A stretch of DNA of 64,000 nt, taken from contig CDROCS010002078.1 of assembly GCA_977020255.1 (NCBI GenBank), forward strand, positions 124,001 through 188,000, written 5' to 3'. The notes below the pieces were generated by a model. It searched no databases. It was not told where the DNA came from and worked only from the letters and a program-made list of their open reading frames with translations. Positions 14,848 to 39,917 of this stretch are shown piece after piece (the first letter of the stretch is position 1; each line of letters opens with the position of its first letter). The position numbers and the translations under genes were made by a program. The DNA comes from Obrimoposthia wandeli. Lineage: Eukaryota.

Positions 14848-15312
14848 TGTTGGGGTTTCTATTTGAAACTCTTATTCAAGTATATCCTCGTATGGAGGCC
14901 CCGAATGCGAGTTCTGTAGCGATATGGCTTCTGAAATAATGGAGTCTGAGTTCTTCTTCGCGAACTAATGAAGTCTGAGTGTTTCTTCCCAAACTAATTG
15001 AGTCTGGGTTCCGCGACTAATAGGTTCCCGTTCTTCTTACTTAACTAAATTTCAACTTCCTTTTCGAAATCCACTCATCCTCTCCCACTAGATTTATCTT
15101 GCTCGGCTCTTTCTCACACTGTTCTCCTCATTTCACACACATTTCCCACGACCTTTTCAAGGTCTTAATTTATTTTAATTCGATATTTTATTCTAAAATC
15201 AATTTATTTTTAATTTTCTATTTAAATTTATTTCGACTTTTGATTTTAATATATTTTTTTTTAATATAAATCATTATTTTATTTATTTAATTCAATTTTC
15301 TTTAATCTAACA
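14848..15312 (-). mobile_element. Solo LTR (465 bp) of a family related to the giant element
   Basis: On the minus strand it starts TGTTAG and ends TAGAAACCCCAACA, the same termini as the giant element's LTR. Flanked by a 4-bp TSD ATTT (14844-14847, 15313-15316). Contains three ~30-bp internal repeats. Confidence 0.85.
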
Positions 15313-15904
15313 ATTTTAATGTACAAAATTAACAATTTTAACCGAAATATCCGTACTTTCATCTACTGTTGTGTGCAAATTTGATTTTTGCATTTCATTA
15401 ATCATTTCTTTCACTGACCCTGACTTATTAATAAAGACATCGACATTTTATAATCTGTATTCGTAAAATCATATACCATAATAATTTCTTCAGTTCTCAC
15501 CGTCGGTACATATTTATAATTTAATTAAAAGCTAAAATATTAATGATACCTTTAAACCCCATCCTAAAATATTATTTTCATTAAAGGGAAATATTTCATG
15601 TTGTGTTATATAATTCTTATAAATATCATGTTAATTATTTTTATATCCTACAATATCAGTTGCATAATCATGAAGGTGAAATTACAGGTAGAGTTTGAAT
15701 TTTTGTGAATGTATAAAATAATAAATTTGTTAGGTTTGAGAATTAAGAAATTTAAATATTTTAGTCGATTAAATACTAAAATAAAAATCCTTGAAAGCAA
15801 GGTTGAAAATTAAATTAAATATTAATTTTAGTTTTAGAATTGAAATTAGTGGAATTTAGGGTAAAAATTAGGAGGACCACGAAGGTCGTGTATAATGTGA
15901 AATG

Positions 15905-15911
15905 TATAAAA
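15905..15911 (+). promoter_or_regulatory. Candidate TATA box in LTR U3
   Basis: TATAAAA ~180 bp into the LTR, upstream of a strong splice donor. Positional inference only. Confidence 0.4.
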
Positions 15912-16015
15912 GTTAGATTAATTAACCCAAAAGTGCAACAAAAGACACATTAACTAAGCAAAGAAGAAAAAAGGGAACAATATCGAACGTCAATCAAAAT
16001 CGAACGTCAATCAAG

Positions 16016-16066
16016 GTAAGCACATTTTCGTGCAGTTAAATTGGAGTGTTTAAAATTAATTTTCAG
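16016..16066 (+). other. Candidate 51-nt mini-intron / splice donor inside the LTR
   Basis: AAG|GTAAGC ... TAATTTTCAG|CTG: canonical donor and acceptor. Also present in both duplicated copies in the 3' LTR. Confidence 0.45.
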
Positions 16067-16596
16067 CTGCCGCAAAAGACTCCAGTTGAAACCGCTGTCG
16101 ACATTGCTGACTGACAGACAGGAGTTGCAGAATCGACTATAAAAGTCGTCGACAAGAAAACGAAATACACAACCGGAAAAAGCAATATCCCAATCTACTG
16201 AGAAATAGACCACAAAAAACCAAGGAAAACCAACATTGTCCCTAGCAGCAACAAGGTGGTTTTGTGATAGACTTGGAGATTTAATTATTGATTTAGCAAA
16301 CTAACTGATTGGGAAATTCTCACGTTTCGTCACACAAGACTTAAAGATCAATCTATCACGGATTTGGGCAACGTCGTAACAGCGACATACAAATCGATTC
16401 TATTCAACCGAACTCGATCTATCACGGAGCAGAGCTTGTGAACCAGTTCAATTGTTGTTCCAGTCAGCACTATATCAGCGAATTTTCATTCGGCAATTCA
16501 AATTCAGTCAGCCGATCGGTTTTTGTGTTCGATCTCAGTATATTCCGGAACGCTTCAGGATATCTCAACCTCGAGACAAAAAACGTAAGAGAGATT

Positions 16597-16948
16597 ACTA
16601 AAATTTGTCTCAATTGTCCTAAAGTTGTCATAAAGTTTGACACTAAAATTGTCTCAATTGTCCTAAAGTTGTCATAAAGTTTGACACTAAAATTGTCTAA
16701 ATTGTCCTAAAGTTGTCATAAAGTTTGACACTAAAATTGTCTAAATTGTCCTAAAGTTGTCATAAAGTTTGACACTAAAATTGTCTAAATTGTCCTAAAG
16801 TTGTCATAAAGTTTGACACTAAAATTGTCTAAATTGTCCTAAAGTTGTCATAAAGTTTGACACTAAAATTGTCTAAATTGTCCTAAAGTTGTCATAAAGT
16901 TTGACACTAAAATTGTCTAAATTGTCCTAAAGTTGTCATAAAGTTTGA
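16597..16948. repeat. 44-bp tandem array in the LTR (~8 units)
   Basis: GACACT recurs exactly every 44 bp (16639-16903, 7 occurrences). The 3' LTR has the same count (38877-39141). Confidence 0.95.
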
Positions 16949-17329
16949 AGAGAAGTTTTGTCTAAATTGCCATAAAAGTTTGAAGAGAAGTTTTTGTCTA
17001 AATTGCCATAAAAGTTTGAAGAGAAGTTTTGTCTAAATTGCCATAAAAGTTTGAAGAGAAGTTTTTGTCTAAATTGCCATAAAAGTTTGAAGAGAAGTTT
17101 TGTCTAAATTGCCATAAAAGTTTGAAGAGAAGTTTTGTCTAAATTGCCATAAAAGTTTGAAGAGAAGTTTTTGTCTAAATTGCCATAAAAGTTTGAAGAG
17201 AAGTTTTGTCTAAAATTGCCATAAAAGTTTGAAGAGAAGTTTTTGTCTAAATTGCCATAAAAGTTTGAAGAGAAGTTTTGTCTAAATTGCCATAAAAGTT
17301 TGAAGAGAAGTTTTGTCTAAATTGCCATA
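16940..17329. repeat. 35/36-bp tandem array in the 5' LTR (11 units)
   Basis: Unit AAAGTTTGAAGAGAAGTTTT(T)GTCTAAATTGCCAT(A). 11 units here versus 6 in the 3' LTR (39178-39390). Confidence 0.95.
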
Positions 17330-17824
17330 GTTTTGGTATAAAGATAAAAGTTTGCCATTAAAGTTAAATTGGGAATTAAAGTTAGAGTTTGACATAAAAG
17401 TCACATTAATTTGAAAATCTATAACTTGAGCTTATTCGCGAGTTAGAGGAACGACTCTAAAAACTCGATCACCCTTAACATAAAATCGATACGTGGTTCA
17501 TCCCCACTTGTTGTAGAGACTTACAGAAGTCTTAGGAATTTTTACTATACTTTTTAGAAAATACGTACATAAACGTATTGTTGTGTTTTAGTTTCGTGAA
17601 TTACAAATAAACAATTTCCTACATTAGAACAAGTTGTTTTTGCACCCTTCAGAATAAGAGACATCAAATCAAATACCTTCAGATAGTACAAGAGATAGGC
17701 AACCATAACACTAAGTAGGCCACGACCAACTTTAAGACCTGCTTCTAATCGAACTCACGTTGGGGCCCTCCGCACTCAAGAGGATCTATACAAAGTTTCG
17801 TATAGAAACCCCAACATATTAAAG

Positions 17825-17842
17825 TGGTGCCCCGAGTGAGGA
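17825..17842 (+). promoter_or_regulatory. Primer-binding site complementary to the 3' end of elongator tRNA-Met
   Basis: TGGTGCCCCGAGTGAGGA is 17/18 identical to the complement of the recalled vertebrate tRNA-Met(e) 3' end (TGGTGCCCCGTGTGAGGA). It lies 8 nt downstream of the LTR end. Confidence 0.8.
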
Positions 17843-17870
17843 TAGCTCGTCGGACACAGCGAATTCACGT

Positions 17871-18170
17871 AGAATAAGTTCAGATAAGTTTTGGAAAATT
17901 GAGAATAAGTTTCAGGTGAATAGAATAAGTTCAGATAAGTTTCAGATAATTGAGAATAAGTTTCAGGTAAACAGAATAAGTACAGATATTAAGAATAAGT
18001 TTCAGATATTAAGAATAAGTTTCAGATATTAAGAATAAGTTTCAGATATTGAGAATAAGTTTCAGATAAATTGAGAATAAGTTTCAGATAAATTGAGAAT
18101 AAGTTTCAGCAGAAGAATATAGACAATTGAGAATAAGTTTCAGAAGAAGAGATAAGTAAATTGAGATAAG
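17871..18170. repeat. ~20-bp degenerate tandem array in the 5' leader
   Basis: Repeating (ATT/G)AGAATAAGTTTCAGAT units. Confidence 0.9.
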
Positions 18171-18703
18171 AATTTGATAAGTTTTGAGAAATCGAGTAGA
18201 TTTGTTCCTCGAAGTTAAGAATTTGATAAGTTTTGAGAAATCGAGTAGATTTGTTCCTCGAAGTTAAGAATTTGATAAGTGTTGAGAAATCGGGTAGATT
18301 TGTTCCTCGAAGTTAAGAATTTGATAAGTTTTTGAGAAATCGAGTAGATTTGTTCCTCGAAGTTAAGAATTTGATAAGTTTTGAGAAATCGAGTAGATTT
18401 GTTCCTCGAAGTTAAGAATTTGATAAGTGTTGAGAAATCGAGTAGATTTGTTCCTCGAAGTTAAGAATTTGATAAGTGTTGAGAAATCGGGTAGATTTGT
18501 TCCTCGAAGTTAAGAATTTGATAAGTTTTGAGAAATCGAGTAGATTTGTTCCTCGAAGTTAAGAATTTGATAAGTGTTGAGAAATCGGGTAGATTTGTTC
18601 CTCGAAGTTAAGAATTTGATAAGTTTTTGAGAAATCGGGTAGATTTGTTCCTCGAAGTAAGAATTCGATAAGTTTTGAGAAGTCGAGTGGATTTGTTCCT
18701 CGA
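18168..18703. repeat. 49-bp tandem array (11 units) in the 5' leader
   Basis: GTTCCTCGA recurs every 48-50 bp from 18204 to 18695. Confidence 0.95.
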
Positions 18704-18720
18704 GTCAGTAAATTTTATAA

Positions 18721-18931
18721 GTGAGAATCGAGTGGATTGATACTCGAAGTAATTAATTGAATAAGTTAAGTCGGGAGACTCTGTCCTCGAACTAATTAAA
18801 AAGATAAAAATCGTAAATAAATTGATAAAGTGAGAATCGAGTGGATTGATACTCGAAGTAATTAATTGAATAGGTTAAGTCGGGAGACTCTGTCCTCGAA
18901 CTAATTAAAGAGATAAAAAATCGTAAAATAA
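18721..18931. repeat. ~109-bp tandem duplication in the 5' leader
   Basis: GTGAGAATCGAGTGGATTGATACTCGAAG...AAAAATCGTAAA occurs twice (18721, 18830). Confidence 0.9.
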
Positions 18932-19350
18932 GAATTGTGAAATAAGATAAAAATAATAAGTATATTGATATAGTAAACGAATACATAATTGATAAGACAA
19001 CGGATAATAGAAAAGGACCCGCGTTTAATACTAGAAGACAAAGCCAGATTCCCAAGGAAGAGACAAATAATAATAAAGTTAACCGAATTGAACAGGTTCC
19101 CCAAACAGATAACAAAGTAACAGAAAAGACTAGAGTCGAAGAAAACGTATCAGAAAGAGACGTAAATCAATCAGCAGTTTCAACCGATAGTTTTGATCTG
19201 ACTGAGTTAATTGGTGACATAAACCCAGAAGAAATTGATAATCTTGAAGTTCAAAACCCAGAAGAAATTGAAATTGCCAATCCAGTAGTTATTGAAGAAG
19301 TTCAAGTAAATAATATTGAAGGAATAGTTGAAGAGGATATAGCTGAAAAT

Positions 19351-22300
19351 ATGGCTCACCCAGGAGCTCAAGCAGATATTAATGCAGGAAATAATGTAGG
19401 TGAAATGAATGCCGAGCAGTTGGCACGAGCTTTAAATGCGACGTTGAGACCCAATTTTTCAGGATCATTGCAGATTACAAAGTTTAAAGGAGATGAGGAA
19501 AGTATTTGTGACTTCCTCGCAGAATATTCGAGTTGTGCAGATGTTCAAGGATGGAACGATAAAGAAAAATGTGTCAGAGTACAGGCACACTTAACCGGAT
19601 TAGCACTTGAAGTGTATAAACATTTGACAGAAGCAGAACGTTTAGATTGGCCAACGTTGGAAAATGCTTTTATTGGAAAATTGGTATTAGGAGACTTAGC
19701 CAAAGTAAATAAGCGACTCATGAGAGAACGGAAACAGAAACATGATGAAGGCGTGAATGAATACGCGTATGTTTTGAGAACCTTGGCCGCAAGAGCGTAC
19801 CCAAGAAGAATAATGAGAAATCAGGACGGTAATCCTGTAGCTCCAGAAGCACAAGCAGCGGAAAATGACCGGAACCAAAATGAAATGGCAGAGGTTTTGT
19901 TAGATATATTTAGAGGAGGATTGAAAAAGGATATTAAAGTGTTATTAGCAGTATCGGATACAAATGATTTTGATAACGCCGTACGAAAGGCGAGAGAGAT
20001 TGAGAAAAATATAAAAAATAACGCAGCATTGGCAATTTACGCAATGACTGCAGGTGACGACGATAAGACAAAGGTCTTCGTGAATAAAACAGAACCGAGT
20101 AATTTTCAGAATCGAAATTATGGACAAAATAAGTTCGAAAAAGTAGATGAATCCAGTAACGGAAATAGAGATAATTTCCGAAGTAGGAATCGAGATGATT
20201 CGAGAGGTAGAAATAATAGTGAGTCTTGGAACAGGAATCGAGATGATTCAAGAGGTAGAAATAATAATGATTCGTGGAATAGAAATAGAGATGATTCCAG
20301 GAATAGATTTAATAGAGATAATTCAGGAAATCGCCAACCTTGGAGAGGAGACGATAGGAATTATAACGCCAACAGAGGAGAGCGAAGTGACTCTCGATTT
20401 GGAAATAATACAGGAAATAGCGACGGAAGATTCAATAATCGAGGAAGCGGTTTTGAATTGAATTTCCGAAGAAATGATTTTAGAGGACGCTATGATAATA
20501 GACAGAATAGTCGTCGAGTACAGTTCGAAGATGAACAAAATAAGATAGATATTCGAGGGAGAATAATGTGTTATACGTGTAAGCAAATGGGTCACTATTC
20601 GAGAGATTGTACGAGAAGTAAAGAGTTCGGAACTAACAGATTTGGAAATAATAATTTCGGTAATAATAATTTTGGAAATAATTACAGAGGATATAATTCA
20701 CCTCCGCCATGGAATAGAGGTGGTGGATATACTCCACAGCCATGGAGACTGAATAATCAGTATACAGATAGACAACAGTCACCAGGTAGATACAATAACT
20801 ATGCAGACAGACAGCAAGGAGCTGAGAGATACAATAATTACGTAGGACAGCAAGGAGCTGAGAGATATAATAATTCCGGTAGATATAATAATAATAATAA
20901 TGTTGACAAGACAAATAGTCGTGAGAGTTCGCCGAAACCGAAAGGAAATTTTAGTTATGTAAGCGATGACAGTGATAGGAATCGCGAAACCGAGCTGCGA
21001 CGCGAAATAGATTTTGAGGATAGTGATAGTAAATTTGAACGAATGTTGGGAATAATTAAAGATTCACCACATACAAAGATGGCAAATTCATCTACGTTGT
21101 CGAAACAAGAGAAAAGTCTACATTCGAGAGAAGAGATGAATGATTTAATGAATAGAATATTAGAAGCGTATGAGACACCAATAGAGAAAACGTGTAACGC
21201 ACAACCTATGACTGATCATGTAGAAGCAGCAAGAAATGCTACGAGTATGGAAAATGTAAAAAAGATAATTAGTGAAGCTAAGGAGACGTTAAATCAACCG
21301 TTAGATGAAACGAGTGAAGCTCCAGAAGTTTTGGCCAAATTGCAAACAATTAAAGTGCACCGATTGGAAGAAGTGCGTGCAGAATTGGTTAAACATAGTC
21401 ATGATAACTTGGGTTACAAAGAAGTACCCCGAGGACTACTGAAAGGTTATGGTCGTTATGTACAGAGATCAAACCAAAAAGGAACGATGAAAATTTCACT
21501 TCGATTAATTTCCGGACAGATAATACATGAAAAACTTAACGTGTATCAAACAATGAAAACGATTCGGAAAAAGTTGGCTGAGAAACTTGAAATTGATGGA
21601 ATGAATATGTTGTTCCATTATAAAGGGAGATCACTAGATGATGAGGACGTACCAGTCGAGTTTGGATATCCGATAGGAAATGAATTAGAGGAAAAAATTG
21701 ATGTCATCACTGTAGGACGTCAAGAGTTAGTAGATAATGAAGGATTAACCGAGATATTGAATTCTGCGTTAGAAATGATAAAAACGCCTATAGAAATTTT
21801 AGACAGTTCAAGTGAAAGCGGAGATAATGATGTAGCTGAAGCTTGGAACAAGACATCCACACCAGAACCATACGTAGCTGAATTACAAGACGTGGAACTA
21901 GAAAATGAGTTGACGACTCCAGTGGTCGAAGTACCACCAGAACCAGAAATAATTCAAACCAGACAAGATGAAGTCACGGATACAGCTAACCAAGTGAGAC
22001 AAAGCGAAACCGTAACCCAACTAGTAGGAGAAGACGAAGTCTCCGAGATTGTAGATTTGGATTCACCAATTTGGCATGCTGCATACAAAGATAGACAAGC
22101 AGAGCAGATGATGCGACAAAATGAAGAGATTGGCCATGAAGAAGGACCAAGTCAAGAGATACAGTATAATGATGAAACGTATGATCCAGGAGAGAATCAA
22201 GCTGAGTATCAGTATTTTCGAAGAGGACCTGGAAGACCTAGAAAAGGCAAAAGTATATTACGAAATGTTCTAACTGCACCACAAACTGATGAAGAAAGAC

Positions 22301-25299
22301 ATCTAAGCATTGGACAGTTAGCAGCGTCATTAGAGCAGTATAGTGCAGAGAGGAATGAAGATATCAGAGGTGATATGAATTCGGAAACTCCAAGTAGTAA
22401 AGATATACTTACGGGAATTCTCAGGCAAGTGAAGCCGAAGTTGTTCAAAATGTATAGAGATGAAACAACCGATATAACAGACAATTTGACTAAAGCAGTC
22501 AGATCACAGATGTCTGCAGTAAAGAGAATGACCGCGAATCATGTATACCATGCATCAATAGATAGATTTTATGACGGTGAAGTTTTAGCGAGATTATGTG
22601 GAAACCAGACTACAAATAAAAAGTTAATTACAGCGATCACATATCTATGTTTCCAATTGACGGAACGAACGAGCCAACCTCACGAAGTCAAACAAGGAAT
22701 AAATGAAGCAATGTATTTGATAGAGAATGTATTACAGAGACGAATTGACGAAAATGGAGGTTGGGCAAAATTAAGTGACTATGCTAAAACCATTGTGGAA
22801 ATGAATGAAGACGATGACGAACAATGTCATGAGAATCGTCAAAAGGAAAATAAACAATACCGTCCGAAAGAGAGAAACAATCAACCAAATATGTCCACAA
22901 CAATGATGATGATGATGTTAGTAATGTTCATGGGAATGCAACAGGCATCAGGATTGATAGCATATGACTGTAGCATACCAAAGATGGGACAAAAGTATTC
23001 ACTGCTCGACAGCGAAGACTGCCCAGAGTCACAACCGTCAAAATTAGAAGTTAAAGGTGTTGAAAACTACTTTGTGTATCAGGATGTTGATAAAGTACAA
23101 GTAGAAGTGAAAGAATGTTCAATCCATTCAAGTTATCACGAATTCTATTGTGGCCATAGAAGTTTTATGTCGGAAATCACACCTACCACACCGTACAAGG
23201 CACATAAGGTTTTGCCGAGAGATTGCGAAGACGCATTTCGAACGGGAACAATAGAGGTAGACAAGAATTACAAACCTGAAGTAAAAATTGGAGTGAGACG
23301 ATACGAAACAGTCACGAGAGTCGGACAACGATGGGCCGATGGATCCTGTGACGGAGAAACAAAAAACGTGCGTGGAACCAAAGTATCTGAGTTAGTAATG
23401 GACGTAACTTACAAAATCGAATTAAAAACATGGACCGCCAATTTTGATAAAAAGACACAACTAATGATGAAGTATCCAGAATGTAAAATGACAGATACAT
23501 CTTGTTTTACAGGCGAATCCACAATTGTGTATCAAATAAATCCGAAGCAATGCTCTTTAGTATTTTTGAAAGAGATTAGTTTTAATAAAATAAAAGGGTT
23601 CCTGTATAATAAAGATGGAGAAGGGTTCCTGTATAATAAAGTTGGAAAAGGATTGCTAAATGAAACAAGACCAATTCCAATGACAAAGACACCTACACTG
23701 TTAATGGCAACATCAATAGAAGAAGGATTGATATTTATTAAAAAGAGAAACAAAGCGCGATGCGGAATGACTGTTAGTACCACAAACTATCCAGGAATAG
23801 TTTTGTCTAAAGAAGCAATAGCATTGGCAGAAACCAAGCTAAAACCAAAAGATATGCAGCTACACACGTATTTTAATAATAAAATTGATTTCTATTATCA
23901 TAAAGGATTGATGCAAATGGAACAGTTATATCGGATGATGATCGAAAGAGATTGCCAGCTAAACAAAGAGATCGTAAGAACAAAGTTAGCATTAGCTATT
24001 ACGAATCCAGACATGGTAGCACCATTATTACCCTTGGATGAAGGAGTATTTGCTAAAACCATGGGAGAAGTATTGTATACTTACAAGTGTAATAAAGTAG
24101 AGGTACAGTTGAGAAAAACAGATCGATGTACGAGTGAATTGGCAGTAACGTATAATTTAAAAGATCTTTTTGTTGAACCAATCACGAGAATGTTACTTCC
24201 AAAAGACACTCCAACTAAAGAAATCAGCTGCTCTAATATAATGGCACCTGAATATCAGATGACGAATAATCTATGGATAACGTTACCTGATCGGAAGCCA
24301 ACGACAACCCCAGCGATGATAAGAATGACGAATCTTAAAGGTAAAATGAAATTCCAAGCGGTGGAAAATATGGAGAACGCAGGATTGTACAATGAAAAAG
24401 ATTTAAAAGCGGCGTGGAACGAAATAATGTTTCCAGTAAGAAGAGCCAGAGTACTTACGGAGAGTGTACATCGAGCATTACCACCAGGAGCGAGATATGC
24501 GAATTTCGATATGTTATTATCGCCAAGTCATTTCAAGGAAGCAGCACATCAGACACTTAGAAAGATGTGGGGGAAATTCCTTGTTTTAGGACAATTATTT
24601 TCGGGTATCATAGGTATTTATGTTATAATTAAATTTGTGCAGGTAATTATAGCCCAGGTGTTGTCTACGTATAGTTTATACAGGATAACCGGAATCACCT
24701 GGCAACTTATAATTGGATGTTTTCCATTTTTAGCAAAATATCTAATGCACCATCATCACGAGAACGAGTTGCGAGCCCTCAAGAAGGAACAACACCAAAC
24801 AAGAACCATGATGCGAGAACCAAGAAACTATCGAGACGATAACGACGACGATAATGATAGTCCAGAAGTATATGCAAAGATACCAGGAAAACCAAAGATT
24901 CCGTTACCAGACAAGGAAGAAGTGGCGTTAAACCTATATCCAATGAAGGAACTAAAGGAGGAGAAGGAAAAGTTCAAGAGAGGCATCTTAATGATAAGAT
25001 GGCCTAAAGTGAGCTACAGTGAAATTCCACAAGCAGAGGAAAAAGACAAAAAAGATAATTCCAGAAGAATTCTAAAGTCTAGGATATCAAATGAGAATCC
25101 ATATGCTCCACCACAAGTAGCAGTAACATTGAACGAAAGAGAATATCTTGCCGAAGTTGATACCGGATCTGCAGTATCAGTACTGAGTAAAGAAATCTTG
25201 TCATCAAAAGAATTAAGAGAAGTATGTCCTAGAAAACAGACATTTGTTAACGTGAATGGTACAGATGTAGTGTCGGAAGGAACACTAAAATGTTCATAG
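19351..25299 (+). CDS. gag: Polyprotein segment 1 (1,982 aa): Gag CA/NC - Ubl - AT-hook - Bcl-2-like - chuvirus-like glycoprotein - N-terminal half of aspartic protease 1
   Basis: Gag capsid motifs (ITKFKGD...GWNDKEK...LTGLA...W..LENAF; RKQ..DEGVNEY...LAARAYP). CCHC knuckle CYTCKQMGHYSRDC at 20569-20610. DTG at 25159-25167. Ends at a TAG in mid-protease; the frame is also open without ATG from 18946. Confidence 0.95.
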   Translation: MAHPGAQADINAGNNVGEMNAEQLARALNATLRPNFSGSLQITKFKGDEESICDFLAEYSSCADVQGWNDKEKCVRVQAHLTGLALEVYKHLTEAERLDWPTLENAFIGKLVLGDLAKVNKRLMRERKQKHDEGVNEYAYVLRTLAARAYPRRIMRNQDGNPVAPEAQAAENDRNQNEMAEVLLDIFRGGLKKDIKVLLAVSDTNDFDNAVRKAREIEKNIKNNAALAIYAMTAGDDDKTKVFVNKTEPSNFQNRNYGQNKFEKVDESSNGNRDNFRSRNRDDSRGRNNSESWNRNRDDSRGRNNNDSWNRNRDDSRNRFNRDNSGNRQPWRGDDRNYNANRGERSDSRFGNNTGNSDGRFNNRGSGFELNFRRNDFRGRYDNRQNSRRVQFEDEQNKIDIRGRIMCYTCKQMGHYSRDCTRSKEFGTNRFGNNNFGNNNFGNNYRGYNSPPPWNRGGGYTPQPWRLNNQYTDRQQSPGRYNNYADRQQGAERYNNYVGQQGAERYNNSGRYNNNNNVDKTNSRESSPKPKGNFSYVSDDSDRNRETELRREIDFEDSDSKFERMLGIIKDSPHTKMANSSTLSKQEKSLHSREEMNDLMNRILEAYETPIEKTCNAQPMTDHVEAARNATSMENVKKIISEAKETLNQPLDETSEAPEVLAKLQTIKVHRLEEVRAELVKHSHDNLGYKEVPRGLLKGYGRYVQRSNQKGTMKISLRLISGQIIHEKLNVYQTMKTIRKKLAEKLEIDGMNMLFHYKGRSLDDEDVPVEFGYPIGNELEEKIDVITVGRQELVDNEGLTEILNSALEMIKTPIEILDSSSESGDNDVAEAWNKTSTPEPYVAELQDVELENELTTPVVEVPPEPEIIQTRQDEVTDTANQVRQSETVTQLVGEDEVSEIVDLDSPIWHAAYKDRQAEQMMRQNEEIGHEEGPSQEIQYNDETYDPGENQAEYQYFRRGPGRPRKGKSILRNVLTAPQTDEERHLSIGQLAASLEQYSAERNEDIRGDMNSETPSSKDILTGILRQVKPKLFKMYRDETTDITDNLTKAVRSQMSAVKRMTANHVYHASIDRFYDGEVLARLCGNQTTNKKLITAITYLCFQLTERTSQPHEVKQGINEAMYLIENVLQRRIDENGGWAKLSDYAKTIVEMNEDDDEQCHENRQKENKQYRPKERNNQPNMSTTMMMMMLVMFMGMQQASGLIAYDCSIPKMGQKYSLLDSEDCPESQPSKLEVKGVENYFVYQDVDKVQVEVKECSIHSSYHEFYCGHRSFMSEITPTTPYKAHKVLPRDCEDAFRTGTIEVDKNYKPEVKIGVRRYETVTRVGQRWADGSCDGETKNVRGTKVSELVMDVTYKIELKTWTANFDKKTQLMMKYPECKMTDTSCFTGESTIVYQINPKQCSLVFLKEISFNKIKGFLYNKDGEGFLYNKVGKGLLNETRPIPMTKTPTLLMATSIEEGLIFIKKRNKARCGMTVSTTNYPGIVLSKEAIALAETKLKPKDMQLHTYFNNKIDFYYHKGLMQMEQLYRMMIERDCQLNKEIVRTKLALAITNPDMVAPLLPLDEGVFAKTMGEVLYTYKCNKVEVQLRKTDRCTSELAVTYNLKDLFVEPITRMLLPKDTPTKEISCSNIMAPEYQMTNNLWITLPDRKPTTTPAMIRMTNLKGKMKFQAVENMENAGLYNEKDLKAAWNEIMFPVRRARVLTESVHRALPPGARYANFDMLLSPSHFKEAAHQTLRKMWGKFLVLGQLFSGIIGIYVIIKFVQVIIAQVLSTYSLYRITGITWQLIIGCFPFLAKYLMHHHHENELRALKKEQHQTRTMMREPRNYRDDNDDDNDSPEVYAKIPGKPKIPLPDKEEVALNLYPMKELKEEKEKFKRGILMIRWPKVSYSEIPQAEEKDKKDNSRRILKSRISNENPYAPPQVAVTLNEREYLAEVDTGSAVSVLSKEILSSKELREVCPRKQTFVNVNGTDVVSEGTLKCS
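21487..21717 (+). other. Ubiquitin/SUMO-like domain within segment 1
   Basis: MKISLRLISGQIIHEKLNVYQTMKTIRKKLAEKLEIDGMNMLFHYKGRSLDDEDVPVEFGY...IDVITVG (77 aa). Follows the beta-grasp pattern and the SUMO-like F.Y.G..L.D...P.E.G...IDV pattern; no terminal GG. Confidence 0.75.
22290..22790 (+). other. Putative Bcl-2-like helical domain
   Basis: YLIENVLQRRIDENGGWAKL resembles the BH2 helix (cf. YL...L..WIQENGGW..F). Upstream is a weak BH1-like segment, and a hydrophobic stretch follows. Confidence 0.5.
22891..24744 (+). other. env: Env-like glycoprotein of chuvirus G / class III type with internal signal peptide and TM
   Basis: Signal peptide MSTTMMMMMLVMFMGMQQASG, then LIAYDC...SLL...C...FYCGHRS...G...DGSCDG...YFNNKIDF...DCQL...LA..NP...GEVLYTYKC..VEV..R....C..EL.V...F.EP.TR.L...ISC, then WGKF..LG....G.IG plus hydrophobic TM. 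This follows the recalled chuvirus glycoprotein cysteine and motif pattern. Confidence 0.85.
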
Positions 25300-27732
25300 A
25301 ATATCGATGGAAGAGCATTGCAGTTAAATGCTAGAATATTCACAGATTGCGGAAGTCCAGTCATGATTGGGATGGACGTAATAAGAATGTTTGAAGGAAT
25401 AATTATACTACCAAACAACAAGAGTTGTAAGAATGACAGTTCAGTGAGAGAGATAAAAATGTTGAGAGGACCTATAGTCGAAAAGGAAAAATGCACTACG
25501 TTCCGTATGGGAGGTTCGTACCCAGACAGAAAACAGGAAGCGCTAGCAAAGTCGATACTTCACTACAAAAATGTAAATTTCGGACCACAAGATACGACGA
25601 GGAGAAAAATAACATATGTGAATCTGTCAGAAAGGGATCCCATGAGATTCGAGAGAAAGAGACGAAATATATTAGAACAGTACTATTCAAAAGGAATGGC
25701 ACGTAAAATGGCAAGATCAGGTTTAGAAATGCTAAACGCGACAAGTAGTTATGGTCATGAGATAGTAGTACGATGCGTATGGTGTAGAGTAAAGTTTAGA
25801 GAATGGGAAAAGAATGAAAACCCAATGAGACGTCATAAAAGAGATGCACCAAATTGTCCTTTTCTTTTGAAACTAAAAACGTCAAACGTACCAGAAATCC
25901 AAACGGGAAAAGCACCCGATTTCGATTACAGTGACGGGATTCCGAAAGGAGAATCAGCTCTAATAGCAGGAAGAGTAATAACGAATAGTCGAATTGAAGA
26001 TATATTCGAAGTTATGCGAGAAGTGATCGAATGTGACGAACAGTATCGAGAAATAACTTTCGAAGACCCAAGACTTAAAAAATTGGCAAAAAAGGGACTT
26101 TTTGCTATAAAAAAGGATGGTAAAGACGTAATTAAATGCCACAAGTGTAAAAAAGAACGAATTATCGACAGATATACTCTTGAGCTACCTAAGAAAATTT
26201 TACATCATGAATTTTGCGAATTTTGTACTTTTAAAAATAAAATAAAGCAAAAAGAACAGAAAACCGAATGTATAATCGAATATCAGATCACACGGAAAGA
26301 GATTTTGGCTCAACAAGACACACCGGTAGTGTCATTCGTGAGAAGATTATATCCAAAAGAAGCAGAAAGAATCAGAGAATTGGTAGAATTAAAAATAAAA
26401 ACTACGCGAAACGGATACGGATCGATTTTTGAATTACTGCGAGATAAAGATGACAGTACAATTGAAACAAAAGAGAAAGAGTACATAAATGAACTAGAAT
26501 ACGTACTAGAAGATCCGGAATGCGCAGTTTGCATGGTCAACAAAATAGAAGTTGCCTTTCTACCATGCGGACATGTAAGAACATGTCGGAGATGTGCAAA
26601 TGAAATGGTATCATGTCCAATTTGTCGAAGAATAATAGATCGACAAGTGAGAAACATTAGATTTCACTATCCAAACATAGGAAGTGGACTGACAGAGTGT
26701 AATAATTCGATAAATACAATATACCATATGGGAAACATAAATGGAGCACAGCGACCAGCAGCTATCATTAGAGTAAATAATTTAAGTGTAAAAGCCTTAA
26801 TTGATACAGGTGCTGTAGCTTCGATAGTAAGTGAAGACTGTTTGACAGAGGAACAGAAACGAACAATGGCAGAACCAGATGAATTCTTGGTATCGGTCAA
26901 TGGAGACCTTGTAAAAGTGACGGGAATATTACCATGTACATTTATAATAGGACGTAATACGATCACTATACCAGTTAGAATCATGAAAGAATGTCCTGAA
27001 CCTACAATTTTAGGAATGGATGTACTATCACAACTTAAAGGGATAAGTATTGATTTACAAGATCCAAGATTGAAGGATAGCACATCAAATAGACAAATAA
27101 ACCAAATTAATGTAATTATAGAGAATCCTATAAAAATCGGTAAAAGATCGCAATTTCTTATTCAAGGTCACACATTATCAGAAGATAAAGGACCAGTTGT
27201 GTTCGAACCATCACGAGATTTCATAGAGAAATACGAATTACCAGTTGTGAGTACAGTATGCCTGATCGAAAACCACAAAATACCAGTTAGACTGATGAAT
27301 ACAACCAACAATGACATTCTATTATACAGAGGAATGAGGTTGGGAAAGATAGCACAGATGGAGAATCCCACCGTGTGTGCTATGAAACTCGATAAAGATA
27401 CGAATGATTACGAAGAAATAGTAATCCAATCAGAAAGACTGACAACTAGAGAAAAGAAACAATTACTTGATCTAATACATAAATTTCCGAAAGTAATTGC
27501 AAAAAACCCATATGACATAGGAGAAACACCTGTCATAAAACATACAATACCACTGACAGAAGACAAAGTAGTCAGAAGAAGACCATATCGAGTACCATTA
27601 CAGTTACAAGATGAAGTAAAAAGTCAGATCGAAGATATGTCTAAAACAGGAGTAATTAGACCGAGTTTTTCGCCATTCTCAGCACCTGTGGTGTTGGTAA
27701 AAAAGAAGGATGGGAAAATGATGGGAAAATGA
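25300..27732 (+). CDS. Polyprotein segment 2: rest of protease 1 - BIR - BIR-like - RING (IAP) - protease 2 - N-terminal part of RT
   Basis: Same frame as segment 1 after the TAG (track ORF 25318-27732). BIR CVWC-x16-H-x6-C (25774-25857); second BIR-like LAKKGLF...KDVIKCHKC; IAP-type RING CAVC...PCGH..C..C...CPIC (26521-26628); DTG at 26803; ILGMD. Confidence 0.93.
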   Translation, partial: NIDGRALQLNARIFTDCGSPVMIGMDVIRMFEGIIILPNNKSCKNDSSVREIKMLRGPIVEKEKCTTFRMGGSYPDRKQEALAKSILHYKNVNFGPQDTTRRKITYVNLSERDPMRFERKRRNILEQYYSKGMARKMARSGLEMLNATSSYGHEIVVRCVWCRVKFREWEKNENPMRRHKRDAPNCPFLLKLKTSNVPEIQTGKAPDFDYSDGIPKGESALIAGRVITNSRIEDIFEVMREVIECDEQYREITFEDPRLKKLAKKGLFAIKKDGKDVIKCHKCKKERIIDRYTLELPKKILHHEFCEFCTFKNKIKQKEQKTECIIEYQITRKEILAQQDTPVVSFVRRLYPKEAERIRELVELKIKTTRNGYGSIFELLRDKDDSTIETKEKEYINELEYVLEDPECAVCMVNKIEVAFLPCGHVRTCRRCANEMVSCPICRRIIDRQVRNIRFHYPNIGSGLTECNNSINTIYHMGNINGAQRPAAIIRVNNLSVKALIDTGAVASIVSEDCLTEEQKRTMAEPDEFLVSVNGDLVKVTGILPCTFIIGRNTITIPVRIMKECPEPTILGMDVLSQLKGISIDLQDPRLKDSTSNRQINQINVIIENPIKIGKRSQFLIQGHTLSEDKGPVVFEPSRDFIEKYELPVVSTVCLIENHKIPVRLMNTTNNDILLYRGMRLGKIAQMENPTVCAMKLDKDTNDYEEIVIQSERLTTREKKQLLDLIHKFPKVIAKNPYDIGETPVIKHTIPLTEDKVVRRRPYRVPLQLQDEVKSQIEDMSKTGVIRPSFSPFSAPVVLVKKKDGKMMGK

Positions 27733-29984
27733 GATTCTGTATAGATTTCAGAGAACTGAACAAGATCACAAGAAAAGATGTGTATCCATTACCTAGAATC
27801 GAAGAGATGCTCGATAAATTGGGTAATTCAGATTATTTTACAACATTGGATTTGCAGAGTGGATACTGGCAAATCGAGATAGAGGAAGAGGATAAACACA
27901 AAACAGCCTTTTCCTGTGGAGATGGATTATACGAATGCGAAAAGATGCCATTTGGACTGACAGGAGCTCCAGCAACATTTCAGCGTTGCATGAATTTTGT
28001 ACTCGCATCGTGTGCAAACACGATGGTTTATATTGATGACATAATAATATTTTCGAAAACGTTCGAAGAACATTTAAAAAATCTTGAAGTTGTATTTAAA
28101 AGACTGGAAAACGCTAAATTAAAAGTTAAACCTACAAAATGCGAATGGGCTAAAGAGCGAGTAACATTTTTAGGACATATAGTATCGAAAGAAGGCATTC
28201 GACCTGATCCAGCGAAGATCGAGAAAGTAAAAGCGCATTTAGCGCCAAAGACTGTTAAAGAGATACAGAGTTTTTTAGGTCTTGCGAATTATTATAGACG
28301 ATTTGTTGAACATTTTTCAGATATAGCAACACCATTGAGAAAGTTGACGAGGAAAGATGAGAAGTTCATATGGGGAGAAGAAGCCCAACAAGCGTTCGAG
28401 CATTTAAAAGAAAGACTGATAAAAGCACCAATATTAGCGTTTCCAGATATAAACCGACAATTCATACTCATGACAGATGCAAGTAACTATGCTGTAGGAG
28501 CAGTATTGGGACAAGAGGATGACGAAGGAAGAGAACACGTCATTGCGTATGCGAGTAGAGGATTAAACAGAGCCGAAAGAGTATACTCTGTTATCGAAAA
28601 GGAATGTCTAGCCATAGTGTATTCATGTAGACAGTACAGACACTATTTGCTAGGACAAAAAGTATTCCTGTATACAGATCACAAACCACTACAATTCTTA
28701 TATAAACATAGAGATGAGATGAGTAGATTAAACAGATGGTTTCTAAAATTGGCCGAATTCGATCTAGAAATCCGTTATAGAACCGGAAAGTCGAACGGCA
28801 ACGCAGATTGTTTGTCGAGATTGACAAATGTAGACGAGAAAGGAAACATAATTCCAGAAGAAGATGAAACCAATGATCAAAAAGGAGAAGCAAATCTACT
28901 GACGATTTTGCTAAAAACGGGTAAAATAGACAAAGAGATCATCAAAGAACAGAAAGAAGATGAAGAACTGAGTCTAATCAAAGAATTGTTGGTGAAAGGA
29001 GACCTAAACGATGAAATGACGAAAAAATACTCGATAAAAGAAGGAATCTTGTATATTGTCAATAATGTCGGAAAGATAGTAGTAGTAATTCCGAAGTCAT
29101 TGAAAACAGCAGTGATGATCCAGTATCACGACGGAACACTAGGAGGACATCTGTCAGGGCGAAAGACGATAGCCAGAATCAAAGAGAAGTACCATTGGGA
29201 TGGTATGGAAGACGACATAAAACAATGGTGTAAACAATGTAAAGTATGTTTAACCAGAAAAGACACCGGAACTCGTACTAAAGTTCCGTTGAAACCAATG
29301 CCAGTTCCCTTGGCACCAATGGAATTCACAGCGATGGATATATTGGGACCATTGAGAGAATCAAGTAAAGGAAACAAGTATGTCATAGTATTTACGGATT
29401 ACATGACGAGATGGGTAGAAGCATATCCCATGCAGAACCAGAAAGCTGAAACAATAGCACAAATCTTAGTGGAAGAGATAATATTTCGATATGGAGTGCC
29501 TAGAAAATTGCTAACAGATCAAGGTAAGAACTTCACTGGAGAAGTCATAAAAGCAGTATCGAAGATATTCGGAATCATGAAGTTACAAACTTCACCATAT
29601 CACCCACAGACAGATGGTCTGGTAGAAAGGTTTAATAAAACTTTATGTATGATGGTACAATCCTATTGCTCCGACAAGCAAGAGGATTGGGATAAATATT
29701 TACCTTCATGTTTATATGCTTACAGGAATTCAGTTCGAGAGGCGATGGGTCACACACCATTCTATCTGATGTATCTCAGACAGAACAATATGCCGATGGA
29801 TCTGGAGTGGACCGAGCCAACATCTCAGTATCTAGAAACTGAACAATACATTGTCGTTATGAAGGAAAGGTTACAAGATGCTTGGACCAAAGCCGGATTG
29901 AAGTTGAAATTCAATCAAGAAGGTTACAAGGAACAATACGACAAAAAGCAAAACCACATGAATTTAGAGTCGGAGATCAAGTGA
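27729..29984 (+). CDS. pol: Polyprotein segment 3: RT - RNase H - integrase
   Basis: YIDD (28029-28040); RNase H TDASNYAVG...EKECLAI...TDHKPL; IN HHCC zinc finger, MDILGP, TDQG, HPQTDGLVERFN. Separated from segment 2 by an 11-bp duplication. Confidence 0.97.
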   Translation: MRFCIDFRELNKITRKDVYPLPRIEEMLDKLGNSDYFTTLDLQSGYWQIEIEEEDKHKTAFSCGDGLYECEKMPFGLTGAPATFQRCMNFVLASCANTMVYIDDIIIFSKTFEEHLKNLEVVFKRLENAKLKVKPTKCEWAKERVTFLGHIVSKEGIRPDPAKIEKVKAHLAPKTVKEIQSFLGLANYYRRFVEHFSDIATPLRKLTRKDEKFIWGEEAQQAFEHLKERLIKAPILAFPDINRQFILMTDASNYAVGAVLGQEDDEGREHVIAYASRGLNRAERVYSVIEKECLAIVYSCRQYRHYLLGQKVFLYTDHKPLQFLYKHRDEMSRLNRWFLKLAEFDLEIRYRTGKSNGNADCLSRLTNVDEKGNIIPEEDETNDQKGEANLLTILLKTGKIDKEIIKEQKEDEELSLIKELLVKGDLNDEMTKKYSIKEGILYIVNNVGKIVVVIPKSLKTAVMIQYHDGTLGGHLSGRKTIARIKEKYHWDGMEDDIKQWCKQCKVCLTRKDTGTRTKVPLKPMPVPLAPMEFTAMDILGPLRESSKGNKYVIVFTDYMTRWVEAYPMQNQKAETIAQILVEEIIFRYGVPRKLLTDQGKNFTGEVIKAVSKIFGIMKLQTSPYHPQTDGLVERFNKTLCMMVQSYCSDKQEDWDKYLPSCLYAYRNSVREAMGHTPFYLMYLRQNNMPMDLEWTEPTSQYLETEQYIVVMKERLQDAWTKAGLKLKFNQEGYKEQYDKKQNHMNLESEIK

Positions 29985-30706
29985 TGATATTTTATCCAGT
30001 CATCGAACCAGGTCTATCGTTTAAACTTCATAGACCATACAAAGGACCATACAAGGTGATCCAGACAACCTCAACAAATTTGAAAGTAATCAACGAAGAG
30101 AATCGGAACAAGGAACCGATGATTGTACATGCAAATCGATGCAAATTAGTACCAAATAAAGATAATGCGTCACGATATGAGTTAAGATCACAGAAATCGA
30201 AATCGAATACCAATACCATTAAACTTACACGAATGGTAAGTGATCGGAACTACATAAACATGATGACGAGTGGTAGCGAGAAAAAACCAGCGAGAATTGG
30301 TATGCTCAGAATGAAGTACCAAGAGGAAAAGGAAGTAATCCGACACATCGCACCACAAGAGATATTAGAAGAAGACGAAGAGATAATAGTTGTTTTCGAA
30401 AAAACACAACCAACAGATGTGGCTAAAGAAGTCATTGTGAAAGATGCACTGACAAACGAATTTCTGTGCGAACTTAGAGTGTCATACTACGACGGAAATA
30501 CATTAGTCGCAGCACTTTATCAAAATTCCAATGTGTTTACGACTGAGAAAGTGATAATCGAAATCACATTGACACCAAACATAGTTGCATGGCAGAACTA
30601 TGACAGTACTGAAGCAGGACTAGCCAGTCAGGAAGAGAAGGAACCGGCCGGTGGTCACATACTGCATGGTACACCAAAAGACTCAAACAAGAATACCACG
30701 ATGTAA
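29882..30706 (+). CDS. Polyprotein segment 4: integrase C-terminus (GPY) and beta-rich repeat 1
   Basis: KAKPHEFRVGDQVM...KLHRPYKGPYKV...VHANRCK. Joins segment 3 if one A is added to the run at 29943-29947. Confidence 0.9.
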   Translation: MDQSRIEVEIQSRRLQGTIRQKAKPHEFRVGDQVMIFYPVIEPGLSFKLHRPYKGPYKVIQTTSTNLKVINEENRNKEPMIVHANRCKLVPNKDNASRYELRSQKSKSNTNTIKLTRMVSDRNYINMMTSGSEKKPARIGMLRMKYQEEKEVIRHIAPQEILEEDEEIIVVFEKTQPTDVAKEVIVKDALTNEFLCELRVSYYDGNTLVAALYQNSNVFTTEKVIIEITLTPNIVAWQNYDSTEAGLASQEEKEPAGGHILHGTPKDSNKNTTM

Positions 30707-30708
30707 TA

Positions 30709-32031
30709 ATGGTATTACGTAATTCACATGGGAAAAGAGATATCATGAGAGTCCATTTAATCGACGCTGACACTGAAAAGATAATTTGTCAGATGGACAC
30801 TAAATACTTTGATGGAAAGACAATTGTATGTTGTATACCAGAATCTCACCGGTTAGACACAGATCAAACGGAAGTATCTGTAAGGTTGAGCGTAATAGAA
30901 GGATTCCATTCGCCAACCCATCCGGAAGTGACTAACAATAAAATCATCAAAGCAACGGCAGAATTACGCATTGACAGCGGATACCGGAAGTGGGAAGCTA
31001 AAAATAAAAAGCCACAAAGAATCAATATGATCCGAGAACAAGTGACCAACTCAATCCAGCCAAAATATCATGCTGAAATAGTATCATCCGCGCCAAGTGT
31101 GATCACATCGATAAACGACGAAATTATAATTTTACTAAAAAATCGATGGCCGTCATCAACTGAGATACGAGTAAACTTAATTAATTATGCGAAGACACCG
31201 ATATCTAAGCTGAATGTTACCTATTTTGATGGATTGTCCATCATGGGTAAATTGGAAACAATTGTCATGTGCTATGGAGCACAGTTCCAAGTTGAGATAC
31301 TTAAAGATAGTGTAATACCGTATCCGATTCACAAATACGAAGGGGAAATCAATCCAATTATTCTAACACCTTCATTAATTTCAGTTCAGACAGACATACC
31401 AGAATACCCTTCGAGCGAGTCTAGTGAAGACAGCGAACCGGAAAGTAACGATACAGAATCAACAGAATCCGAAGATAACATAATAGAGCGATTCGGAAGA
31501 ACCATGGAGGTTGAATTCGCTAAAGAGAGCAGAAAAAGACAAAATATAGAATTCGTGAAACAGAATATACAAGAAAGACGAATTAAATCTGCAGAAGAGA
31601 CCGAGTCGGAAGAAGACTCAACAAAGGAACAGACATCAGAGACAAAGATGAATATCTCTCCAGCAATACGAATGCTGAGAGGAAAGAAACTGGCGAAACT
31701 ATCCAACATCGACGAACAGATAGAGAAGAGATTAGAAAGACTAAAACTTGAAGAGTCAGAACTAACGCCACCAATGAGTGAGATCATTCCAGGTAAGTTA
31801 TACCTCGGAAATGTGGAGGATGCAACCGATGAAAAGAAACTGTTGAAACAAGGGATAACATATGTGATCAACGTTACAATGAATCACAAATCGCAATATC
31901 AGACGATCAGAGCTATGACATTAAGAGTAAAAGACTCAATGGACGCTAATCTTCTCGAATGGTTCGTAGAAACAAACGAAATACTTCACAGAGAACTCCG
32001 AAACCAAGGAAAAGTGTTGGTACATTGTTAG
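30709..32031 (+). CDS. Polyprotein segment 5: beta-rich repeats 2-3, acidic linker, N-terminal part of a dual-specificity phosphatase
   Basis: MSEIIPGKLYLGN...LLKQGITYVINVT...KVLVHC*. Joins segment 4 if one A is added at 30676-30679. Ends at a TAG inside the P-loop HC*KGISRS. Confidence 0.9.
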   Translation: MVLRNSHGKRDIMRVHLIDADTEKIICQMDTKYFDGKTIVCCIPESHRLDTDQTEVSVRLSVIEGFHSPTHPEVTNNKIIKATAELRIDSGYRKWEAKNKKPQRINMIREQVTNSIQPKYHAEIVSSAPSVITSINDEIIILLKNRWPSSTEIRVNLINYAKTPISKLNVTYFDGLSIMGKLETIVMCYGAQFQVEILKDSVIPYPIHKYEGEINPIILTPSLISVQTDIPEYPSSESSEDSEPESNDTESTESEDNIIERFGRTMEVEFAKESRKRQNIEFVKQNIQERRIKSAEETESEEDSTKEQTSETKMNISPAIRMLRGKKLAKLSNIDEQIEKRLERLKLEESELTPPMSEIIPGKLYLGNVEDATDEKKLLKQGITYVINVTMNHKSQYQTIRAMTLRVKDSMDANLLEWFVETNEILHRELRNQGKVLVHC

Positions 32032-35444: not shown

Positions 35445-35567
35445 TGAGTCAGAGGAGGTTGTAGATAAATTAGTGTGTGAAATATGTAGAAATATCTAGA
35501 AGCGATTGTACAAATAGTAGAAATATATAAAACTCATGTAGAAATTAATCATCATCATGTATTTAGA

Positions 35568-35867
35568 ATGGCTGAAGAATGCCCAATATGTTTGGAAGAT
35601 CTAACCGAACGAAGAACAAGACCCGAAACCTGCAACCATTTACACCACGAGGAATGTTTATCGACATGGATCAGAACTTATGGACAGTTCGGACATCCAA
35701 CATACCCTTGTTGCCCTGTATGCAGAAGACAATTCGCAAGATTCATCATGTTAGAAACCAACCAAGAGGATGTATATGTACAGGTGGTATTCTGTTGGAA
35801 GAATTTCGGAGAGTGTTGGTGTTATTACTGTTTGTCAGATCGACAAAATCAGACCACTTTTGTGTAA
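35568..35867 (+). CDS. Accessory RING-H2 protein 1 (99 aa)
   Basis: CPIC...CNHLHHEECLSTW...CPVCRRQF, plus C-terminal CWKNFGECWCYYC. Confidence 0.85.
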   Translation: MAEECPICLEDLTERRTRPETCNHLHHEECLSTWIRTYGQFGHPTYPCCPVCRRQFARFIMLETNQEDVYVQVVFCWKNFGECWCYYCLSDRQNQTTFV

Positions 35868-35927
35868 ACATCACACAACCACCAGTCCTCAATCGAGCCC
35901 AAATTCAACATCAACCCTCCCACAGTA

Positions 35928-36232
35928 ATGTCTGGAGAATGTTCCATCTGCTACGAGAGCATCGTGGACTTCTACACCAAGCCCAACAACTGCGACCACC
36001 TTTTCCACGTCGAATGCCTCGAGACGTGGATCCCCATCGCAAACAGCAACAATCCCCTCGACTTCCCAACCTGCCGATGTGCAGAGCGACCTTCTCAGTA
36101 CACTACGTGTACAACCAAGACAGCCTCCAAGCAGTGGTACCCATCGTACACTGCTGGAAAACCATCTGCGATTGCTGGTGCTCGTTCTGCGTGGAGGAGC
36201 GAAGCACAGGCCAGCCCAATCCCCAACAATAA
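35928..36232 (+). CDS. Accessory RING-H2 protein 2 (~101 aa after repairing a 1-nt loss)
   Basis: CSIC...CDHLFHVECLETW...TC|PMCRATF...CWKTICDCWCSFC. The two halves lie in track ORFs 35928 and 35579 and are joined by adding one C at 36074-36075. Confidence 0.82.
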
Positions 36233-36567
36233 TCGAAGGTAACTTTCTGACTTGAACGTGACATCATGAACTACCCTGTGTATCGCATACCGCGATAAAT
36301 TAGCTACCATAATTGTAATCATAATTATATAATCTTGTGAACTGTAAATTGACCATTACCATTTTTATGTATGATGTTTAACTGAAATTGTAATTATTAT
36401 ACTGAATTTCTAAAAAAGACAATTTTTTATGCTTAGTGTGAATGCGTAAACATGCCTAAAATCGAAACAAAACTCGGTAGGATTGGATAACTAAGGATTC
36501 GTTTTGAAATAAAAATTAAATTAACGATGAGAACGGTGAACCCCAAATTGAAAGGAGTTATTTTCTT

Positions 36568-39877: not shown

Positions 39878-39917
39878 AATTAATCCATTTTACAAATCAA
39901 AATGAACAATGACAAAA

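Follow-up and report, generated by a model that had tools for sequence, protein, structure and literature searches.

A Constrained, Degenerate Bcl-2-like Domain ahead of a Predicted Internal Env Signal Peptide in a Burro-like Retrotransposon of Obrimoposthia wandeli

The long reading frame at this locus raises the question of whether the segment directly ahead of a retrotransposon envelope glycoprotein (Env) is a Bcl-2-like domain, and whether the signal peptide of Env could double as its tail anchor: a first-pass annotation of 22290–22960 had proposed both, with a second anti-apoptotic arm as the consequence. All coordinates refer to the window, the whole stretch of 64,000 nucleotides that was analyzed, and features lie on the forward (+) strand unless indicated. 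The Bcl-2-like region sits inside a Gypsy-type LTR element of 24,150 bp (15728–39877). The 5' LTR (TG...CA; 15728–17816) was delimited by self-comparison with the 3' LTR and by reading its ends directly, and within the 3' LTR (37368–39877) about 690 bp are duplicated in tandem; the pair is 99.6% identical across 1,332 bp by self-comparison, and a 4-bp target duplication, AATT, is found at both flanks of the element.

A 2,117-codon frame (18946–25296) runs uninterrupted from Gag to Env, and the first polyprotein frame, counted from its first ATG, spans 19351–25296 and is closed in the present copy by an in-frame stop (25297–25299). It encodes a weak Retrotrans_gag match with one CCHC zinc knuckle (19351–20613; PF03732 E 0.008, PF00098 E 1.2e-5), a ubiquitin/SUMO-like domain (21487–21717; PF00240 E 0.006, under the cut-off), and a basic GRP motif (22219–22245), presumably of the AT-hook type, which lies directly upstream of the Bcl-2-like domain and was used as a landmark. 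These are followed by the degenerate Bcl-2-like helical domain (22393–22809; assigned on profile, fold, and selection evidence), a charged linker predicted to be disordered (22810–22890; pLDDT below 50, model residues 169–201), a predicted internal Env signal peptide (22891–22953; from hydropathy, comparison, and a check of positions -3 and -1), and a gB-type (Monjiviricetes-like) Env ectodomain with its transmembrane segment (22954–24678; PF24664 E 3.5e-93), the latter placed at 24571–24678 by hydropathy. Downstream are a BIR and RING (IAP-like) module between two aspartic-protease domains (25696–26643; PF00653 E 9e-12, PF13920 E 7e-12), reverse transcriptase (RT), RNase H, and integrase (27708–29606), frameshifted in the present copy against the preceding frame, and a dual-specificity phosphatase domain that is stop-interrupted in this copy (31798–32181; PF00782 E 4e-11 and 7e-22 for its two pieces). 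The Pfam order is CCHC, gB-type Env, protease, BIR, RING, second protease, RT, RNase H, integrase, phosphatase. The copy is broken, by the stop at 25297–25299 and then by further frameshifts downstream; the family has a very high copy number, with 150 of 150 scored matches (12,642 candidates) identical in amino acids over a 232-residue region.

Several further observations concern the element and its surroundings. The two protease domains that flank the BIR/RING module together span 25117–27042, and in the relatives P0004 and P0011 the protease-like stretches number three or four; weak ubiquitin or UBX matches also occur in P0005, P0007, and P0023. Besides the phosphatase, a long coding region 3' of the integrase (30613–37104) holds a second stretch that resembles a phosphatase but is degenerate, as well as several hydrophobic segments, and other copies of the element have open frames of up to 5,301 codons through Env; judged by sequence, the polyprotein may extend beyond the integrase and exceed the length reported for Burro, 4,873–5,140 aa. 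Tandem arrays of 44-, 35/36-, 20-, 49-, and 109-bp units lie in the LTR and 5' leader (16597–18927), and a primer-binding-like site starting with TGG is found at 17825. The element is flanked by a 230-bp inverted repeat, 99% complementary (14987–15216 and 39914–40143), and the retrotransposon may have landed within a DNA transposon or MITE. Elsewhere in the window are pieces of another LTR element, not related to this one (zinc knuckle, protease), pieces of a hAT transposase (1844–2686, - strand, and 5272–6075, + strand), and a 108-bp tandem array (43726–44584).

This architecture closely resembles that of Burro (GYPSM1), the giant gypsy-like LTR retrotransposons of planarians, which are described as encoding SUMO-like, BCL2-like, in-frame Env, PR, and BIR domains in that order (PMC6431247). 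The element matches the Burro order of Gag, SUMO-like, BCL2, Env, PR, BIR, RT, RH, and IN, and shares with it a Gag with CCHC, a Ubi/SUMO-like and a BCL2-like domain, an Env related to mononegavirus glycoproteins, PR, BIR, RT, RH, and IN within one polyprotein, as well as giant size and very many copies. It differs in having one CCHC, compared with two or three in Burro (PMC6431247), two protease domains, a phosphatase after the integrase, and no Pfam match to MATH or ankyrin. We call it Burro-like, not Burro, because it measures 24,150 bp as opposed to the more than 30 kb given for Burro (PMC6431247); the comparison was made with the published description of Burro. The domain and its position before Env are thus already published for Burro elements, and the available text of that description says nothing on a signal peptide or topology (PMC6431247). 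A second point of comparison is the GAG-ENV-POL errantiviruses with an HSV/gB-type Env, reported from Platyhelminthes, Nematoda, and Bryozoa, which likewise carry Env between Gag and Pol, its ectodomain flanked by a signal peptide or transmembrane segment (PMC13524379); the terms Bcl, Burro, and apoptosis do not occur in the available main text of that study, nor is Bcl mentioned in the available text of PMC8532177.

The motif that had drawn attention to the region, a BH2-type sequence YLIENVLQRRIDENGGWAKL in which Arg takes the place of the first Trp, lies at 22714–22773 exactly as annotated, and the Met-rich hydrophobic segment begins 40 codons beyond it, at Met 22891. A helical region is indeed present, but the conserved domain is shorter than the proposed 165 residues or so, at about 135–140 aa (22393–22809); an additional helix at 22309–22362 has pLDDT below 50 and falls outside it. 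The annotation had also recognized that the NWGR signature of BH1 is not conserved: the BH1 equivalent (22606–22626) aligns TNKK to it, with Lys at the Gly position. Of the BH2 motif W-I-x-x-x-G-G-W, the segment retains GGW. Among nine sequences, the first BH2 position is Trp in three and aromatic (W, Y, H) in seven, the Gly of NWGR is retained in one, and its Arg position is basic (Lys or Arg) in seven; some read DGITF or NNVTFAK at BH1. A relaxed pattern of the BH2 type matches the 2,117-codon frame at one place, and 3 of 2,000 shuffled versions of the frame contain it, a rough figure given that the pattern was written post hoc.

The sequence evidence for a Bcl-2 fold is distributed over several modest signals. 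For the isolated segment, Pfam Bcl-2 (PF00452) is the top match but sub-threshold (E 0.058, 14.4 bits), and the same family matches three of the seven domain-bearing relatives (E 0.001–0.055); against the cut-off of 31.4 bits, the relatives reach at most 20.1 bits. For a profile built from eight retroelement sequences and no cellular Bcl-2, the best natural PDB match is Bcl-xL (E 1.3e-3, spanning BH1–BH2), with a designed repeat protein ranking above it. When HHalign compared nine retroelement domains with 13 exon frames of host Bcl-2 genes, the probability was 93.8% (E 1.7e-7) over 65 columns covering helices 4–8, and 7 of the 13 real host frames score above all 650 shuffles and 13 reversals; host locus L035 scores best against the retroelement profile, from which we claim no donor. 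Other searches returned nothing in support: homologue searches at E 0.01 were empty with the segment alone (491 candidates) and with the alignment (2,121 candidates), a single-sequence PDB search gave two weak and unrelated matches, two Atlas look-ups gave no Bcl-2 match, one of them yielding phage minor capsid clusters at low recognition and the other no usable match, and viral contig scans found no relative. An alignment containing whole polyproteins was left out, since it scattered the query residues. The host genome itself has 13 Bcl-2-family matches (L031–L043, with L100 and L102 also among the loci), several of them Bak/Bax-like with BH3-like exons; all 13 look cellular, and this search missed the domain of the element.

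The predicted structure points in the same direction. The AlphaFold model (mean pLDDT 56.5; 65–81 over residues 71–160) is a helical bundle with a central hydrophobic helix 5 and helices 2–8 in the Bcl-2 arrangement; helix 1 (BH4) is predicted at 22396–22464 with pLDDT 42–53 and is aligned in few structural rows. It superposes on Bcl-xL and KsBcl-2 over about 100 residues (rmsd 2.5–2.9). The annotation had named a structural search with such a model among its checks. Here, 43 of 44 Foldseek rows belong to the Bcl-2 family, but the best E is 0.11 and none reaches 1e-3; the best viral match is an adintovirus Bcl2 (E 0.058). When the Foldseek matches were realigned with VIA, 44 of 50 rows were Bcl-2 family (Z up to 8.2) and ranks 1–18 were all Bcl-2 proteins, with Bcl-xL at Z 7.9 (rmsd 2.8, 105 residues). 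In a wide VIA search, KsBcl-2 came first (Z 7.4, rmsd 2.9, 103 residues), tied with unrelated helical proteins (Z 7.1 and 7.0), and the Bcl-2 family made up 17 of 50 rows; vaccinia A52 and B14 are also among the structural neighbors (Z 6.4 and 5.6). A single-sequence fold of the trimmed domain had a mean pLDDT of 40.8. A joint model of the domain and a Bak-like BH3 stretch from the host, computed without using the alignment, scored 0.00 and is given no weight as evidence. These fold tests are incompletely independent, because the model and the profile share one alignment. Nevertheless, the retroelement profile, HHalign, Foldseek, and VIA, each weak alone, agree on family and register, and we therefore favor the Bcl-2 fold: the modeled domain very probably resembles it.

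The hydrophobic segment, in turn, very probably has the character of a signal peptide, judged by its sequence. Its core (22900–22938; 11–13 residues across the set) is followed by a polar c-region with Ala at -3 and Gly at -1 and then by a (Y/F)DC mature start, so laid out that the cut likely falls after the Gly at 22953, and the segment directly abuts the PF24664 Env domain. We compared the segment with 22 further proteins of elements or viruses and with 7 stand-alone glycoproteins; the h-region, the c-region, and the start at (Y/F)DC recur in 8 of 8 Bcl-2-bearing proteins, 15 of 15 domain-less proteins, and 7 of 8 stand-alone glycoproteins, whose N-terminal signals have the same layout, which supports the annotation's identification of the segment as the Env signal peptide. 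The core contains Gly and Gln, is not more hydrophobic in Bcl-2-bearing elements (on an uncalibrated scale), and is not followed by basic residues, which are a feature of mitochondrial tail anchors in that position. The poly-Met part of the core (22903–22917) is an (ATG)n repeat of 3–28 units in 77 of 84 loci, 65 of these 77 having five, and the core of the distant relative P0011 is Met-rich as well.

To place the domain and the signal peptide relative to each other we turned to the relatives, seven long ones being recovered by Env-anchored searches among 5,163 candidates and more among the best 150 of 1,302 matches. Seven relative proteins and locus L098 carry the same domain ahead of the signal peptide. 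A leave-one-out HMM scores 16.7–69.5 bits in all eight domain-bearing proteins and at most 6.9 bits in the 15 domain-less relatives examined, of which five are short upstream of Env (144–237 aa) and may be incomplete. The distance from the GRP motif to Env is 224–260 aa in three Bcl-2-bearing proteins and 97–190 aa in four domain-less ones, and in these four a short linker leads from the landmark to the signal, the domain being absent from the interval. A second Gag–Env family in the same genome (L077, L079, L081, L082, and L084), about 35% identical at the Env N-terminus, passes at all five loci from Gag straight to signal peptide and Env with no Bcl-2-like domain. Where the domain is present, the linker behind it varies in length (39–85 aa from the BH2 Trp to the Env start in eight proteins). 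In a tree built from 26 Env rows, the domain is missing from the early branches, and all nine domain-bearing rows fall within a 15-row group whose support (89/97) is not firm. The deep forks have support of 82/70 and 89/97; at least two changes are forced. One gain of the domain followed by repeated loss would be the simplest reading of these sequences, though not a demonstrated one. The signal peptide predates the domain, as it is also present in the domain-less relatives and the early branches lack the domain, and its sequence appears to bear no sign of adaptation as a tail anchor.

Selection was assessed from 46 genomic copies that had not been chosen on the domain region, with a variant counted as shared when present in at least three copies; 30 loci chosen for identity in the Bcl-2-like region were excluded. 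In the domain, shared variants comprise 8 nonsynonymous and 37 synonymous changes (dN/dS 0.06), a count subject to a mild bias in that part of the 46 copies had been picked via distant relatives including the domain; the 30 Env-selected copies alone give the same outcome (5:26). Singletons in the domain stand at 69:24 (dN/dS 0.75; P 3e-10 vs. shared), and we take them to be mostly decay after insertion. Shared variants are less constrained in both the upstream linker (34:29, dN/dS 0.32; P 1e-4 vs. the domain) and the Env N-terminus (82:89, dN/dS 0.24; P 3e-4 vs. the domain); those in the post-BH2 linker plus signal peptide number 5:12 (dN/dS 0.07, on small numbers). The domain is thus under strong purifying selection, stronger than that on Env, in a young family of very high copy number, and this shows that it matters to the replicating element. 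A second Env type occurs within the family at L074, L075, L080, L083, L092, and L097, with 71–74% amino acid identity to the studied copy over the first 120 Env residues and a Bcl-2-like region almost unchanged from it, a pattern suggestive of diversifying selection or recombination at the N-terminus of Env.

An internal signal in a polyprotein inserts at the ER with its N-terminal side in the cytosol, and the part downstream of it enters the lumen. The explanation that we favor overall, with moderate confidence, is that of a Burro-like Gag-Env-Pol retrotransposon whose polyprotein bears, on its cytosolic Gag side, a degenerate domain of Bcl-2 fold derived from a host, with tethering as a by-product. 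The ancestral internal Env signal peptide would insert at the ER during translation and direct Env to the luminal side; as hydropathy suggests, the transmembrane helix of Env would bring protease, IAP module, and Pol back to the cytosol. Cleavage by signal peptidase after the Gly at 22953 would then leave the Gag-UBL-Bcl-2 precursor attached to the ER through the signal peptide. Because this peptide forms the end of the upstream chain once cleavage has taken place, the geometry proposed in the first-pass annotation is sound for that moment, and an ER tether, at least a transient one, is probable. Such a tether would follow from gene order and be common to relatives without the Bcl-2 domain; it may persist, or be undone by the protease of the element or by signal peptide peptidase, and lasting membrane anchoring of the domain seems doubtful. 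The domain most likely would support survival of the expressing cell, upstream of the caspase-level BIR/RING module; that it does so through BH3-groove binding has somewhat less than an even chance.

Four other readings deserve consideration. The region could be a helical bundle of other origin in which GGW arose by chance, and in favor of this, Pfam, Foldseek, and the wide VIA search all fall short of conventional significance in a large library, the Atlas gave no Bcl-2 match, and two homologue searches yielded nothing; we nevertheless consider this highly improbable, since sequence-profile, profile–profile, and structure searches share family and register, the canonical BH2 Trp is present in three of nine sequences with DGITF or NNVTFAK at BH1 in some, and a BCL2-like motif has been noted at the same place in Burro elements (PMC6431247). 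It is also quite improbable that the main source of Env is a subgenomic or spliced RNA starting at Met 22891, so that the segment would be an ordinary N-terminal signal rarely joined to the domain: this Met does open a complete 21-residue signal peptide, and P0007 and P0012 have a Met at a similar place, but P0003, P0016, and P0023 have none ahead of the h-region, and domain, signal, and Env share one frame in eight of eight relatives. Repurposing of the fold, as in A52/B14, into an immune-signaling or assembly scaffold that does not bind BH3, possibly together with the adjacent ubiquitin-like domain and basic motif, has more in its favor, though on balance it is somewhat unlikely. The degenerate BH1 with Lys at the Gly position, in a domain nonetheless strongly constrained, and the presence of A52 and B14 among the structural neighbors agree with it, as these two proteins are groove-less and inhibit NF-kB rather than apoptosis (PMC2494871); conversely, BH2 is kept and sequence similarity to cellular Bcl-2 is detectable, of which A52/B14 have none (PMC2494871), and a BIR/RING module is encoded in the same element.

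The remaining alternative is the strong form of the original proposal, in which the mature product would be a stable, tail-anchored, viral-type Bcl-2 binding the BH3 of host Bak/Bax, and the signal peptide would have two lasting jobs; this seems rather unlikely. The domain is younger than the signal peptide, which is retained where the domain was lost; the 11–13-residue core of the signal peptide is no more hydrophobic in the presence of the domain (uncalibrated scale) and is not followed by basic residues, the linker ranges from 39 to 85 aa, and Lys occupies the groove Gly position. Such a short core, its content of Gly and Gln, and a possible release of the domain by the element's protease or signal peptide peptidase likewise weigh against permanent anchoring. 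In its favor, the geometry is compatible with a tail-anchored protein, the linker and signal peptide are constrained (although the 5:12 count is small), the NWGR Arg position is Lys or Arg in seven of nine sequences, host Bak/Bax-like genes with BH3-like motifs exist, viral Bcl-2 proteins with SPGR or NDNR bind BH3 nonetheless (PMC8310162), and rubella capsid reaches mitochondria via its retained signal peptide (PMC3040668). Taken as a whole, the scenario in which a Bcl-2 captured before the Env signal became a stable, membrane-anchored homologue neutralizing host Bak/Bax is unlikely.

Known systems show which parts of the by-product reading have precedent. The anti-apoptotic rubella capsid retains the E2 signal peptide as its C-terminal anchor and thus is, like the product predicted here, a cytosolic polyprotein product keeping the signal peptide of the next glycoprotein; it differs in having no Bcl-2 fold, and its signal peptide is needed for mitochondrial targeting, not for the apoptosis block (PMC3040668). 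NSm of Rift Valley fever virus (RVFV), also anti-apoptotic, is a signal peptidase product of the glycoprotein precursor with a C-terminal transmembrane segment at the mitochondrial outer membrane; it is an accessory protein of an RNA virus, and the available text states no relationship to Bcl-2 (PMC4926171). Both cases indicate that a signal-peptide-type remnant can anchor an anti-apoptotic protein (PMC3040668, PMC4926171), and by this analogy a dual-use signal peptide is plausible. KsBcl-2, ORFV125, and A52/B14 are the closest structural neighbors of the model and share a degenerate BH1, but each is encoded by a stand-alone gene in a large DNA virus and has either an anchor of its own or none, and unlike the domain of the element they are not cleaved from a Gag-Env-Pol polyprotein.

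The Bcl-2-like domain at this locus is thus real and under constraint, and the Burro-like element that carries it is new. In the literature searched we found no proposal that the signal peptide anchors the domain, although primary Burro papers or their supplements may discuss the domain; what is added here, beyond the literature found, is the constraint on the domain exceeding that on Env, its gain and loss while the signal peptide stays, and the predicted ER-tethered product. The BIR/RING module of Burro1 has been reported to protect planarian stem cells (as summarized in the available text of PMC13465017), and the Bcl-2-like domain is a putative second candidate beside it for the protection of cells. 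The role of the extra Burro domains becomes directly testable with a protein of 140 residues. If an anchored Bcl-2 and the BIR/RING module do act together, the element would block cell death at two levels from a single polyprotein, one-to-one with the production of Env.
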